A program made the position numbers and the translations under genes. DNA of 64,000 nt from Escherichia phage AV111. Within the stretch, counting starts at the first letter, position 1; each line of letters starts with the position of its first letter. The notes under the pieces were generated by a model. It was not told where the DNA came from, ran no database searches, and saw only the letters and a program-made list of their open reading frames with translations. This document shows positions 2,598 through 53,030 of this stretch, piece after piece. The stretch is from sequence record OR352941.1. The stretch is one strand, 5' to 3'.

Positions 2598-2837
2598 TTA
2601 TTTGAATTTCTTGGCAGTGTTGATATAACGTAAAGCTTCAGCATCGATACTTCCAAGAACACTATGAAGAAATGCATCAGCGTAGTATTCCAATTGAACA
2701 GATTCTTTAATCACTTTAGCCGCTTTAGTTTCAAACAGGCCCATCAGGGCCTTTTTAAGAATTTGTTCATTAGTGTTCAGTTTCATAGTCAAAATCTCTT
2801 CATTAAGTTGGTGGTTAAAAGTTTTTCTAGAAATCAT
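2598..2837 (-). CDS. hypothetical protein, 79 aa
   Basis: ORF track; overlaps stop of upstream gene by 4 nt, operon-like packing. Confidence 0.45.
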   Translation of the reverse strand: MISRKTFNHQLNEEILTMKLNTNEQILKKALMGLFETKAAKVIKESVQLEYYADAFLHSVLGSIDAEALRYINTAKKFK

Positions 2838-3994
2838 TCCGGGTACCTCAAAGCGTCATCAGAGTTAGTTATATCAATAATAGATATAGAGTTTTCTGCT
2901 AACCCGTTTTTAGATAATTGACGTTTATAATATCTTTCACAATATGTACACGTCGTCCCGCAGATTTCATTAGCACAATCGAAATCTGGATGTCTGAACC
3001 ACCTTTTTTCTAAAAAGCCATCTAACAAAGAGGTTTCAATATTTACTGTATGTGAAAACTCAGTTTCGTTTTCAAGAGTGAAAATAGTCTCTAAAGGCTT
3101 CCACAGTTCTAACAAATTACCTTCAAACTTTTCAGAAGCGTATGCTTCAAGAACTTTCAAAATGTAGTCTGTGCTACCTGTACGTCCTGAAACTTTGAAT
3201 TGAGTGATACCAATATCATTATAAAGTTTCAAATCTTGAGGACGAACAAAACGAGTTCTCAACCAGTTAAATGGGTCTGTATCACGAGCTTTAATACAGT
3301 GCTGCATAGGATATCCGTTTAAGGATTTAGCATCATCAGCTGTAACATCAGTACTATGGAAAATATAGCAAGAGTCACGATAGCTACAATGTGTTGTATA
3401 CCCTTTACCAGCATTAGAACAGAACTCATTTACAAGAACTTCAAATATTATATTGTTCTTATTGCAAAACTCTGCTGCACGCTTCAGGAAAGAAACTGAA
3501 CGGTTCTTATGAATTCCACAGCAGACCTTTTTGATATTATATTGGTCATGCAAGTATTTGATTTGAGTTACAGCATCGACATGTAGAATTGTTGAAACTT
3601 CAATCTCAATGTCTTTATTGACTTCACGAACAATTTCCATAACAACAGGGTTAGCGATAGTAATACGCCATACGCCTATTGACCAAAGATACTGAACATA
3701 ATCCTGAATAGCTTTCTTCTTCCACTCAACTAGTTCTCTTTTTGAACCAGGATTTATCGTGTTGAGTGTATAGTTAAAGCAAATACCTAATTCGTTACAA
3801 CGTTTAACGTAATCTTCTAACATCTTTTTGTCAACGTCAGGAAGCCTAAAATCAGGTCTGGCTGCTACAAAAGCCATTTCTCTTGTAGAGCCGTATACTT
3901 CGTTTATCAAGCTATTAGGATAGGTTTTATTGAGCTCTACGATTTTATCAAGAAGAGCTAAATCAAAATTCGTTCCGATTTTAAAAGTATTCAT
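2834..3994 (-). CDS. cysteine-rich hypothetical protein, 386 aa (possible metal/Fe-S binding; modification-island gene)
   Basis: ORF track; C-terminal FDCANEICGTTCTYCERYY (Cx4Cx3Cx2C) plus other Cys clusters; no confident family assignment. Confidence 0.6.
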   Translation of the reverse strand: MNTFKIGTNFDLALLDKIVELNKTYPNSLINEVYGSTREMAFVAARPDFRLPDVDKKMLEDYVKRCNELGICFNYTLNTINPGSKRELVEWKKKAIQDYVQYLWSIGVWRITIANPVVMEIVREVNKDIEIEVSTILHVDAVTQIKYLHDQYNIKKVCCGIHKNRSVSFLKRAAEFCNKNNIIFEVLVNEFCSNAGKGYTTHCSYRDSCYIFHSTDVTADDAKSLNGYPMQHCIKARDTDPFNWLRTRFVRPQDLKLYNDIGITQFKVSGRTGSTDYILKVLEAYASEKFEGNLLELWKPLETIFTLENETEFSHTVNIETSLLDGFLEKRWFRHPDFDCANEICGTTCTYCERYYKRQLSKNGLAENSISIIDITNSDDALRYPE

Positions 3995-51329: not shown

Positions 51330-51372
51330 GTTGCTTTTCCTAAGTTAATTAACTTATCTATTTATTATTATG

Positions 51373-51402
51373 CCAAAAAGCCCCGACCTTTCGGAAGGGG
51401 CT
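51373..51402 (-). terminator. rho-independent terminator (AGCCCC-ttccgaaaggtc-GGGGCT + TTTTTGG)
   Basis: Hairpin plus U-tract at the downstream end of the structured RNA region. Confidence 0.6.
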
Positions 51403-51712
51403 AAGCCTTGCGGCAACCTTGTCGGGGTTCCACCTGCTAAGGCAAGTGTTTGTACGAAACGCCGGGATTCGAACCCGGTTATTAAGTAGTTGACGCTACT
51501 CAATATTTTTAAAAGGCCATATCTCGACCATATCCGAACGTTCCGTCAAAAACGCTACTCGGCTTACGGCAAAGATATTTCCTCGAATCGATAATTCGGT
51601 GCGCCGTTTCTGCTGTGATGTAAGGGGATATTAACGAATCATAAAGATTTATTAAGACCAGTCCTTACTCAGGGAACATCAGTCCGACGACTTACCGGTA
51701 GCGACCCGGCTT
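51403..51712 (-). ncRNA. non-coding structured RNA region with a canonical tRNA-like T-arm (CCGGGTTCGAATCCCGG at 51461-51477); possible small stable RNAs or degenerate tRNA
   Basis: No ORF of 60 aa or more; T-arm consensus on minus strand; I could not fold a complete cloverleaf by hand. Confidence 0.3.
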
Positions 51713-51713
51713 C

Positions 51714-52058
51714 TTATTTTGGCATATCATCAATTTGCTCTCGACGCCGACGCCATAGATTAATCGCTTCATTGGCACATTCTGCGTTTGGTATATGACG
51801 GCAATAATATAATGATTCGCGTTTCTGGAACCGATGTTGTAATGGGATTTCGTTTAAAAGGTCTTTACGGTCAAAGTATTCAAAACTAGTTAACCCGGAA
51901 CGGTTTTTAATGAACTTCCAATGTCCAAATTCATTTTGAACATAGATGTAATCGGCATGTTGGTATAACAAATTAATCAATCGGTCTGAAATAACTGTAT
52001 CATGTTCGTTAAAATAAAACGTTAAATCATGAACTACCAGATAAATATTGCCTTTCAT
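51714..52058 (-). CDS. hypothetical protein (~114 aa; start at internal MKGNIYLVV)
   Basis: ORF track 51714..52109; the listed N-terminus overlaps tRNA-Arg, so the internal Met is used. Confidence 0.5.
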   Translation of the reverse strand: MKGNIYLVVHDLTFYFNEHDTVISDRLINLLYQHADYIYVQNEFGHWKFIKNRSGLTSFEYFDRKDLLNEIPLQHRFQKRESLYYCRHIPNAECANEAINLWRRRREQIDDMPK

Positions 52059-52076: not shown

Positions 52077-52152
52077 TGGTGCCTCTAGAAAGATTTGAAC
52101 TCTCACCATTAACCTTAGAATGATTATATGCTATCCATTACACTATAGAGGC
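52077..52152 (-). tRNA. tRNA-Arg (anticodon UCU), 76 nt with encoded CCA
   Basis: Hand-folded cloverleaf: acceptor GCCTCTA/TAGAGGC, D-arm with GG, anticodon loop ATTCTAA, T-arm GAGAG-TTCAAAT-CTTTC, ACCA end. Confidence 0.75.
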
Positions 52153-52809
52153 AATTAAATTATTTACAATATCTTCTTTATAAACTTCAGCATAATGAAG
52201 TTCATATATTTCCCATCCTAATGATTTTATAATATCATGGCGTTCTTTATAATAAGGGGCCAAAATCTTTTTCTTAGGATTGGAGTAATGTTGGTTTCCA
52301 TTAACTTCAATAATAATCTTTTTATCTATTAAAGCAATATCCGTGCAATACGCTCGGTTTTTAACCGGTTGGTATTCTTCAATAAATGAAATTCCATTTT
52401 CTATTAATTTAGATTTCAAAAATTCACAAGGCACAGATTTAAATTTTGTATTTTTCTTCCAAGGATGTTTATCGGGGTTTTCATTCAACCATTTTTTCCG
52501 AGCATTAGATATTTTTATTCTAGCTTCCTCAGAGTGTTCTCTACCTAATGAAGCGGCTGACAATTTTTGTCTAGTCTCTTCCGAAATTACTACAGGAACA
52601 CCAGTCTTTTTAGATACAACATACTGGTTTAAATTACCTGAAGCTATACGTGCTTTATTCATTGCTGCAATGGCTGATTTAGAACTTTCTTTATACAATT
52701 CCAATTTAGGGTTGGATTTACACCATCTAGTGTGGTTAGCCATCCATCCTTTAGGTTTATTAGAAATATCAAATTCCATATTACAATGTTTACAAATGCT
52801 CATTACCAA
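52138..52809 (-). CDS. homing endonuclease-like protein: N-terminal zinc finger, NUMOD3-like motif, C-terminal Vsr/DUF559-like PD-(D/E)xK nuclease domain
   Basis: CKHCN...WCKSNPK; SEETRQKLSAASLGREHSEEARIKIS; YCTDIALIDKKIIIEVNGNQHYS; last 5 codons overlap tRNA-Arg 5' end. Confidence 0.65.
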   Translation of the reverse strand: MVMSICKHCNMEFDISNKPKGWMANHTRWCKSNPKLELYKESSKSAIAAMNKARIASGNLNQYVVSKKTGVPVVISEETRQKLSAASLGREHSEEARIKISNARKKWLNENPDKHPWKKNTKFKSVPCEFLKSKLIENGISFIEEYQPVKNRAYCTDIALIDKKIIIEVNGNQHYSNPKKKILAPYYKERHDIIKSLGWEIYELHYAEVYKEDIVNNLIASIV

Positions 52810-52877
52810 TTATCTCCTATAAAATATAGGAGTATTTATTATTTGGATAGAGCACTTAATTTACTTCGTTTAAATTA

Positions 52878-52949
52878 CTGGCGCACTTTGACTCGAACCA
52901 AGATAAAGGAGTTAACAGCTCCCCGTAATAACCTTTATACGATGCACCA
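52878..52949 (-). tRNA. tRNA-Asn (anticodon GUU), CCA not encoded
   Basis: Acceptor TGGTGCA/TGCGCCA, anticodon loop CTGTTAA, T-loop TTCGAGT; T-stem has one mismatch. Confidence 0.6.
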
Positions 52950-52955
52950 TTTGTT

Positions 52956-53030
52956 TGGTGACCCTGGCTGGTTTCGATCCAGCTACCTATCAGTTATGAG
53001 CTGACAGCTCTCCCATTGAGCTACAGGGCC
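52956..53030 (-). tRNA. tRNA with CAU anticodon (Ile2/lysidine-type or elongator Met), 75 nt with encoded CCA
   Basis: Acceptor GGCCCTG/CAGGGTC with C4-G69 and C5-G68, D-stem GCTC/GAGC, anticodon loop CTCATAA, T-arm GCTGG-ATCGAAA-CCAGC. Confidence 0.75.

Follow-up and report, generated by a model that had tools for sequence, protein, structure and literature searches.

The subject of this analysis is a gene in a 64,000-nucleotide (nt) segment (hereafter, the window) of the genome of Escherichia phage AV111 (OR352941.1), a T4-type, RB69-like phage of the genus Mosigvirus. All features of the locus lie on the minus strand, where, in the order of transcription, genes for tRNA-Met and tRNA-Asn are followed by a 74-nt leader, an open reading frame (ORF), and a tRNA-Arg(UCU) gene into which the ORF runs (Table 1). 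A preliminary description made from the sequence of the window had recognized a nuclease gene overlapping the 5' end of this tRNA-Arg, and the extents of the two features bear this out. Our data argue that the gene probably encodes a mobile Vsr-like homing endonuclease of the tRNA clusters of T4-type phages, situated directly upstream of tRNA-Arg(UCU).

Table 1. Features of the endonuclease locus in the window (UTR, untranslated region; SD, Shine-Dalgarno sequence; AF2, AlphaFold2)
Feature	Position	Strand	Basis or detail
Exchanged cassette (tRNA-Asn' + endonuclease gene + tRNA-Arg')	52077..52950	-	Sliding identity
tRNA-Arg(UCU), endonuclease-linked allele	52077..52152	-	ARAGORN; Rfam 57.6 bits
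ORF/tRNA overlap	52138..52152	-	Last four sense codons (A-S-I-V) + TAA = tRNA-Arg nt 1-15
Endonuclease ORF	52138..52803	-	221 amino acids from ATG at 52803
Predicted Vsr-like (EDxHD-type) nuclease domain, residues ~110-221	52141..52476	-	E127, E143, D155, E166, N168, H172
Two NUMOD3-like helices (ISEETRQKLSAASLG / HSEEARIKISNARKKW)	52486..52587	-	Pfam NUMOD3 subthreshold, model helices
CCHC zinc finger (C4, C7, H24, C28)	52720..52794	-	Conserved Cys, AF2 model
5' UTR / putative regulatory module	52804..52877	-	Octamer, SD hairpin, outer stem
Anti-SD/SD hairpin CTCCTATA-TTT-TATAGGAG	52814-52832	-	SD GGAG at 52814-52817
Late-promoter-like octamer AATAAATA	52833-52840	-	
Outer stem AAGTGCTC	52850-52857	-	Pairs with GAGCATTT (52794-52801) across the start codon
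tRNA-Asn(GUU), nonresident allele, left part of exchanged cassette	52878..52949	-	Rfam 45.9 bits
tRNA-Met(CAU), conserved left flank	52956..53030	-	Homology with ORF-less phages resumes

When read from an in-frame TTG at 52809, the ORF as listed (52138..52809, minus strand) does give the 223-residue protein of the preliminary description, but since all homologs start with MS(I/V)C at the equivalent of the ATG at 52803, translation most likely begins there and yields a product of 221 amino acids. The window ORF is 100% identical to a hypothetical protein of Escherichia phage vB_EcoM_WFL6982/WFK, and its product has full-length homologs with E values from 1e-143 to 1e-40. A search of 5.8 billion proteins returned full-length relatives down to about 40% identity, along with many proteins that match residues ~86 to 221 only, at about 50% identity, and carry other DNA-binding N termini (HTH_23, HTH_28, and MerR); several of these bear the Joint Genome Institute (JGI) name "very-short-patch-repair endonuclease." In an exhaustive HMMER scan, 1407 clusters (at 50% identity) reached E ≤ 1e-3, and 208 reached E ≤ 1e-30. 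Pairwise ratios of nonsynonymous to synonymous substitution (dN/dS) among the phage copies range from 0.06 to 0.30, and rather than the frameshifted pseudogene that the preliminary description had allowed for, seven of the eight close copies of the gene are intact, the exception being a 1-nt indel in PTE-Eco05. The homologs, the cluster count, the dN/dS values, and the recurring tRNA overlap described below discount a chance ORF and indicate a real, intact gene under purifying selection across its whole length.

The annotation of this gene in public records varies. Homologs in PP889504 and PQ885451 are called "HNH endonuclease" in GenBank; given that the window protein has no HNH match in Pfam and that its predicted fold is Vsr-like, this label names the wrong family. 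No NCBIfam model matches the protein. The ORF was left unannotated in the records of phages F2 and HY126, and the annotators of Mizar noted NUMOD3 and DUF559.

The AF2 model of the protein has a predicted local distance difference test (pLDDT) score of 93, and fold comparison ranks a DNA homing endonuclease as the nearest structure, ahead of DUF559 proteins and Vsr. The link to I-Bth0305I, encoded in the recA intron of Bacillus phage 0305phi8-36 (PDB 3R3P), came only through fold comparison and a domain-restricted hhalign comparison; PDB sequence searches with the single protein and with a 75-sequence profile found nothing useful. An hhalign run with the full alignment matched an irrelevant C-terminal helix-turn-helix (HTH) extension of some homologs and was redone on the nuclease domain only, using the I-Bth0305I gene sequence from phage 0305phi8-36. 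Against the C terminus of that enzyme, the nuclease-domain profile then aligned over 98 columns with an E value of 9e-6 and an identical IEVNG motif. The Pfam matches are weak and belong to one clan, with DUF559 (PF04480) just above its gathering score (21.4 versus 20.6 bits; I-Bth0305I itself reaches 29.7 bits) and RAP, MTES_1575, and NUMOD3 below theirs.

Conservation agrees with this assignment. The residues E143, D155, E166, N168, G169, and H172 are invariant in 75 of 75 homologs, E127 is found in 73 of the 75, and R188 is nearly invariant. Four of these residues (D155, E166, N168, and H172) belong to the motif YCTDIALID..IIIEVNGNQH, which is present in the protein as previously described. 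With residue roles in the EDxHD fold taken from Taylor et al. (PMC3239194), D155 corresponds to D196 of I-Bth0305I (Vsr D51), N168 to N208 (Vsr H64), and E166 to E206, an extra conserved acidic residue, while H172 matches H213 (Vsr H69) and E127 matches E170 with a shift of one residue in each case. The C-terminal domain is accordingly modeled with a Vsr/EDxHD fold and conserved catalytic residues; the DUF559/Vsr-type PD-(D/E)xK nuclease named in the preliminary description holds, and the failure of structure prediction that it had named as a possible objection did not materialize.

Residues 1 to 108 comprise a CCHC finger and NUMOD3-like helices, a modular DNA-binding region N-terminal to the nuclease, as in EDxHD homing endonucleases. 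This is the architecture of a minority homing-endonuclease family that the preliminary description had suggested. The finger has the spacing C4-x2-C7...H24-x3-C28; in the 75-sequence alignment, C4, C7, and C28 are kept in all homologs possessing this N terminus, which substantiates the N-terminal CxxC zinc finger proposed earlier. It is modeled as a beta-hairpin plus helix at a pLDDT of ~96, and one BFVD neighbor bears the name "C2H2-type zinc finger." The NUMOD3-like repeat, also proposed earlier, is retained in a weaker form: the model has helices at residues 75 to 85 and 92 to 108, S99 and R102 are near-invariant, and Pfam NUMOD3 (PF07460) matches with an E value of 0.003, but at 17.8 bits the match stays below the gathering score of 20.4, and the region is NUMOD3-like only. 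Homologs score between 13 and 20 bits, with the Acinetobacter homolog at 20.0. These helices presumably bind the minor groove.

The RAP domain shares the Vsr-like fold, and RAP (PF08373) gave the best Pfam E value of the window protein (4.4e-5). An RNA-directed, RAP-like endonuclease, or an RNA-binding protein acting on tRNA precursors, would explain the location of the gene, which lies between tRNA genes in all 13 contexts examined, spanning six or more phage genera; furthermore, the copy in phage LilPanda passes the RAP gathering score (25.4 versus 24.2 bits). The window protein itself, at 23.8 bits, does not, and both the structural neighbors and the N-terminal modules are of the DNA-acting type. 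The precise junctions and hitchhiking alleles described below form the pattern of DNA-level homing, and since the protein is absent from most phages that have the same tRNA genes, it is dispensable for tRNA maturation. We therefore consider a role on RNA very improbable and treat the protein as a putative DNA homing endonuclease.

At its 3' end, the ORF reads ...AAT TTA ATT|GCC TCT ATA GTG TAA, with the tRNA beginning at the bar. The preliminary description had counted five codons in an overlap of 15 nt; the length is correct, but the overlap consists of four sense codons plus the stop. The tRNA-Arg allele is of T4 type (D-arm GTGTAATGGATAGCA) and stands in place of the resident Mosigvirus tRNA-Arg. 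In the copies from Mosigvirus, Gaprivervirus, and Jiaodavirus, the junction is ...AA(A/T)TTAATT|GCY, and the insert, itself without a stop codon, takes A-(S/L)-I-V-stop from the tRNA; the junction ...AATTTAATT|GCY... is common to PSD2001, DCP548, LilPanda, and metagenomic contig L022. Overlap of the ORF with tRNA-Arg recurs in four further phage lineages. In phi1_146055/L018, the ORF runs for 24 nt into another tRNA-Arg (GCCCTTATAGTTAAGAGGATATAA) and ends with the tail ALIVKRI, and in L024 its end falls within the decayed remnant of a tRNA. The relatives from Providencia, Acinetobacter, and another metagenomic phage lie between other tRNAs, with stops of their own and unrelated tails of 4 to 5 residues. 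Because the tail changes with the adjoining tRNA, it is clearly dictated by that tRNA and not selected as protein.

The same comparison lends itself to a plainer account, in which the overlap has no function and is the footprint of an insertion at tRNA +1, the first in-frame stop happening to be the TAA in the D-arm. That a different tRNA-Arg in phi1_146055/L018 yields a different, longer tail, and that copies without a downstream tRNA-Arg have unrelated tails and their own stops, is what such a footprint would produce. It fits less well with the persistence of the stop-less arrangement in at least four lineages with saturated synonymous sites (dS > 1), or with the T4 precedent, where maturation of tRNA-Arg is reported to cut the segB mRNA at the stop codon, between it and the last codon, and has been proposed as a limit on expression (PMC2330249). 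A similar consequence would be hard to avoid here. We give the functionless overlap slightly less than an even chance; it touches only the RNase P step of the mechanism proposed below and is compatible with the rest.

Of 50,697 phage records, only 22 contain the gene at the DNA level. A 3-kb stretch surrounding the ORF matches 845 phage records, in only 10 of which the ORF is spanned, and 5 of 180 Jiaodavirus records carry the gene. In Klebsiella phage Merci, the empty site reads tRNA-Leu...GCACCAAA|GCCCTTATAGTG... (GCCCTTATAGTGTAATGG being tRNA-Arg from +1 onward), and LilPanda and contig L022 carry an insert of ~689 bp exactly at this point; the tRNA-Arg allele of L022 is that of the Merci empty site. 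In Dhakavirus QL01, the slot is also empty, with tRNA-Ile-ACTAC-tRNA-Arg (T4-type) and nothing between. Across four different tRNA contexts, insertion has repeatedly occurred precisely at tRNA-Arg +1, and the alignments indicate a precise presence/absence polymorphism at this position among otherwise collinear genomes, with co-conversion of flanking markers. Polymorphisms at tRNA position 3 were considered as a source of immunity and rejected, as L022 has the gene beside exactly the empty-site allele.

In eight E. coli phages, an 873-bp cassette is 98 to 100% identical, compared with 65 to 97% in the flanks (adjacent 100-bp bins fall to 65 to 90%). The contrast is clearest in ELT1 and F2, both filed by GenBank under Tequatrovirus. 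Such near-identity in backgrounds that differ by 10 to 35% alongside indicates recent lateral spread. PhAPEC2-type relatives lack the cassette and have their Met, Asn, and Arg tRNAs 4 nt apart, with no gene; the tRNA-Met of PhAPEC2 is identical to that of the window, but its tRNA-Asn and tRNA-Arg show no sequence relationship to those of the window. For this reason, the flanking tRNA-Asn and tRNA-Arg being different alleles, we rejected a simple insertion into the resident Mosigvirus locus. The tRNA-Arg allele of the window, at full length, is found only in ORF-carrying phages (11 of 11 records), and by sequence the element came in with its own tRNA-Arg allele, replacing the resident one. The tRNA-Asn allele was likewise considered as linked to the gene and was rejected, since it occurs in the gene-less Gelderlandvirus SEA1 and Mosigvirus AV115. 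DCP548 and contig L017 contain a more divergent copy of the gene (76 to 79% identity) followed by a chimeric tRNA-Arg (2652-2727 in DCP548), whose 5' two-thirds (acceptor, D-arm, and anticodon arm) are those of the gene-linked allele and whose T-arm and 3' acceptor (GAAGGTTAGAATCCTTCTGTCTCGACCA) are those of the resident SEA1/PhAPEC2-type allele. Its acceptor stem is unable to pair and ARAGORN calls no tRNA, suggesting that the chimera is nonfunctional.

The comparison also brought out peculiarities of individual tRNA clusters. At 52889, the window has a private substitution in tRNA-Asn, C to A on the tRNA strand (GAGTCAAAG for GAGTCCAAG), which produces a G-A mismatch in a T-stem that is paired in seven sister phages and in Salmonella phage SEA1; the Rfam score of this tRNA is low against the 57 to 59 bits of its neighbors. 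In Escherichia phage AV115 (~907-1100 of its locus), a deletion fuses the tRNA-Asn' T-arm (GGTTCGAATCC) to the 3' part of rnaC and takes out tRNA-Arg, a 114-residue ORF, and rnaD, a rearrangement by T-arm microhomology at the same hot spot. Klebsiella phage Shinkou, a Jiaodavirus, has the order Arg (bacterial-like), Leu, Thr (860-1210 of its locus), with a stretch of ~80 nt ending like a tRNA T-arm between Leu and Thr; the cluster is thus highly mosaic within one genus. In metagenomic contig L021, a pair of tRNAs precedes the Vsr-like gene, and just upstream of that pair lies a second ORF (502-1155), of 217 residues and with a faint NUMOD3 match; this ORF may represent another homing endonuclease in the same cluster.

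The position of the gene corresponds to that of segB in T4, where the order is tRNA-Ile, 41 nt, segB (221 amino acids, GIY-YIG), 5 nt, tRNA-Arg, rnaD, and rnaC. In Gaprivervirus PSD2001, our ORF takes the place of segB between T4-like flanks, with tRNA-Ile plus spacer 97.7% identical to T4 and the stretch from tRNA-Arg nt 10 through rnaC 86% identical, so that the earlier suggestion of a different nuclease family at the analogous site of T4 is sustained. Both genes occupy an identical slot between an upstream tRNA and tRNA-Arg(UCU), and both products have the same length. The design of the 5' UTR is also shared, as is part of its sequence, (C/T)ATAAATACTCYTA...ATAGGAG; the T4 segB leader reads TATTTTGAGAA-CATAAATACTCTTAGAAATAGGAGATATTTATG, and that of PSD2001 and DCP548 reads TATTTTTAGAA-...-TATAAATACTC(C/T)TAT...AATAGGAG...ATG. 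In contrast, the proteins are unrelated (best BLASTP E value against T4 SegB, 2.1): the catalytic domain of SegB is GIY-YIG by Pfam match, the window protein has no such match and a Vsr-like domain instead, and the domain order is reversed. Furthermore, segB ends at a stop codon of its own that lies 5 nt before the tRNA, whereas here the stop lies inside the tRNA. SegB recognizes the tRNA T-arm motif GGTTCRANTCC and spreads together with the surrounding tRNA genes (PMC2330249). With slot and leader in common and the proteins unrelated, the element looks like a case in which the ORF was replaced and the regulatory shell and slot were kept.

A late promoter combined with a hairpin that sequesters the ribosome-binding site (RBS) has been documented for I-TevI, I-TevII, I-TevIII, segB, and Aeh1 mobE (PMC2988022; PMC2330249), and the leader appears to follow this scheme of T-even free-standing homing endonucleases, with a putative late promoter in or near an RBS-masking hairpin. 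All 12 relatives carry the T4 late-promoter octamer, TATAAATA, without mismatch, 30 to 40 nt before the ATG; the window octamer, AATAAATA, matches it at 7 of 8 positions and is comparable to that of segB (CATAAATA). The predicted masking of the RBS is based on individual folds. The window leader folds with a free energy of -19.9 kcal/mol (z -3.7 to -4.4), the leaders of relatives reach z scores of -1.9 to -6.6, and that of segB reaches -7.6; in every one of them, the SD and AUG are buried and the promoter falls within or beside the 5' arm. When RNAalifold was applied to eight 5' UTRs, it returned the outer stem only, the inner hairpin being missed because MAFFT misaligned it. One outer-stem pair shows a two-sided change; as only this pair changed on both sides and the 3' arm is coding, covariation support is weak. 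A sigma-70 promoter scan was uninformative, with fewer sites than in shuffled sequence, and Rfam found no family in the 5' UTR or in the rnaC/rnaD region.

Among known systems, I-Bth0305I is the closest in its nuclease domain. Besides the shared motif and residues given above, both proteins match Pfam DUF559 and MTES_1575, and both have their DNA-binding region N-terminal to the nuclease. They differ in that I-Bth0305I is intron encoded, has 266 residues, and carries two NUMOD2/HTH repeats at its N terminus, whereas our gene is free-standing and its product combines a zinc finger with NUMOD3-like helices; here, the His is also one residue closer to the Asn. Vsr of E. coli (PDB 1CW0) and DUF559 proteins (NGO0050, 3HRL) are close to the window protein in fold, but the window protein lacks the T:G mismatch-recognition elements and the Vsr zinc site, has Asn in place of Vsr His64, carries extra DNA-binding modules, and lies in a mobile-element context.

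Free-standing relatives are known as well. Dassa et al. 2009 described Vsr-like putative homing endonucleases in "fractured genes" at T4-like cyanophage metagenomic loci (PMC2677866). Like our gene, these are free-standing, with a Vsr-like C-terminal domain, hairpins upstream of their start codons, and, in two members, tandem NUMOD3 N-terminal to the nuclease (PMC2677866); compared by description, they lie inside split protein-coding genes, often between split inteins, whereas the gene analyzed here lies between tRNAs and terminates within one of them. Taylor et al. place the T-even Hef endonucleases in the same Vsr-like family (PMC3239194). By description, Hef of phage U5 and Hef-like enzymes are also encoded by free-standing genes in T-even phages, although between nrdA and nrdB and not in the tRNA cluster. 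Hef reportedly replaces mobE, a homing endonuclease gene of another family, at the same locus, as Sandegren et al. are said to have found in 2005, and this replacement, as well as that of SegH/mobC, parallels the replacement of segB here. Searches by tblastn with the whole protein or the nuclease domain found no Hef-like T-even, nrdA/nrdB-located, or Acj9/LIMEstone homolog at E ≤ 1. Since Vsr-like free-standing endonucleases with NUMOD3 have already been described, our gene adds a member, at a locus already known as a hot spot for genes of this kind, and not a new category; the particulars of this element are the stop codon borrowed from a tRNA, the co-mobilized tRNA allele, and the leader common to segB.

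Considering these data, we propose the following model for expression and homing. Transcripts reading through from the tRNA operon would form the 5' UTR hairpin that buries the SD and AUG, while transcripts from the late promoter would start inside the hairpin, lack its 5' arm, and be translatable. With only the latter escaping the hairpin, the enzyme would be made late and in small amounts, as sequence and precedent suggest. The zinc finger and NUMOD3-like helices would bind a long DNA site, and the Vsr-like domain (E127, D155, E166/N168, and H172) would cut both strands of a gene-less, co-infecting relative. The enzyme would most likely target the point where the upstream tRNA, at its 3' CCA end, meets the 5' acceptor/D-arm of a T4-type tRNA-Arg; the two empty sites, in Merci and QL01, share CACCAA-N(1-4)-GYCC...GTGTAATGGAT(T)AGCA. 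Because the insertion splits this sequence, carriers would be immune.

Recombinational repair would then copy the gene together with the adjoining tRNA-Arg allele, which must accompany it as the source of its last four codons and stop. As the comparative data show, flanking tRNA alleles hitchhike, and occasional crossovers inside the tRNA leave broken, chimeric tRNA-Arg genes. Finally, maturation of tRNA-Arg by RNase P would cut the mRNA 12 nt before the stop codon. In this scenario, any one transcript would yield a tRNA or a terminated protein but not both, further limiting expression.

Several observations weigh against this model. The fifth EDxHD residue (I-Bth0305I D222, Vsr D97) has no clear counterpart in the protein: hhalign aligns it with the near-invariant Y184, and D190, the acidic residue closest by, is kept as D in 49 of the 75 homologs and replaced by E in 8. 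To our knowledge, no member of this subfamily has an established enzymatic activity or cleavage site. The window has its octamer at four places on this strand, and the octamer is, for that reason, weak evidence alone. The resident Mosigvirus tRNA-Arg, of PhAPEC2/SEA1 type, is unlike the proposed T4-type target, and ordinary recombination between conserved flanks could have caused the spread within Mosigvirus; cleavage elsewhere in the cluster, or a relaxed specificity by analogy with SegB and I-Bth0305I, could offer other routes. The low frequency of the gene could also mean that the element is no longer actively homing. In PTE-Eco05 (2638-3304 of its locus), the indel is a 1-nt insertion that shifts the frame, and a stop is first met at codon 78; two fragments are annotated in the record, and both real decay and sequencing error are possible.

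Some of these points would also suit a decaying or domesticated remnant, perhaps a DNA-binding repressor of its own or neighboring transcription, whose patchy occurrence reflects ordinary recombination and loss. The rarity of the gene among sequenced relatives, the frameshifted copy, the imperfect promoter octamer, and the poorly conserved last EDxHD Asp agree with decay, and endonucleases of the I-TevI type double as autorepressors (PMC2988022). A remnant, however, would hardly be under purifying selection with its candidate metal-binding and general-base residues kept in 75 of 75 homologs, nor does it account for a near-identical cassette in diverged backgrounds or for precise, repeated insertion at tRNA-Arg +1. 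We regard this explanation as improbable and favor a functional homing endonuclease.

Downstream of the element, the window resembles T4 in its stable RNA genes. A homolog of T4 rnaC (species 1) lies at 51453-51591 on the minus strand, 99.3% identical over 139 nt, and a homolog of rnaD (species 2), 86% identical, lies at 51598-51717 on the same strand; the block of the two is 98 to 100% conserved even in PSD2001 and ELT1. The listed ORF 51354..51503, most of which falls within rnaC, is probably spurious. Whereas tRNA-Arg and rnaD adjoin each other in T4, in the window they are separated by a 114-residue ORF (51714-52058, minus strand; MKGNIYLVV...) similar to RB69ORF150c; if read from 52109, this ORF would have 131 residues and extend over the 3' end of tRNA-Arg, a version that is probably unused.

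The dependence of the ORF on the tRNA opens the way for a further, more speculative hypothesis, namely, that the endonuclease gene and tRNA-Arg are obligate partners in one composite mobile unit, for which the conserved 5' half of T4-type tRNA-Arg and the preceding CCA end serve as a portable homing site across genera. We consider this rather unlikely at present. If true, the nuclease would have given up its own stop codon and would spread only with its tRNA-Arg allele, and RNase P would act as a built-in throttle, leaving either mature tRNA or terminated protein per transcript. By exchanging or disrupting resident tRNA-Arg genes, such an element would actively rewrite the tRNA repertoires of phages, which could matter for the evasion of host defenses that attack tRNAs.

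In conclusion, the analysis provides a name and a testable function for a gene that has been deposited as "hypothetical protein" or mislabeled "HNH endonuclease" in about 20 T4-like phage genomes. We know of a single characterized enzyme in the EDxHD family, and a small, well-folded, free-standing protein with defined empty sites should be an easy second one to characterize. The finding of a second, unrelated nuclease family in the segB slot, with promoter, hairpin, and RBS shell in common, would make this locus a clean case of ORF replacement among selfish nucleases. It also points to a nuclease-linked turnover of phage tRNA genes, visible as allele replacement, chimeric dead tRNAs, and T-arm deletions, in a region where SegB-driven rearrangement has been tied to escape from tRNA-targeting defenses (PMC13096335).

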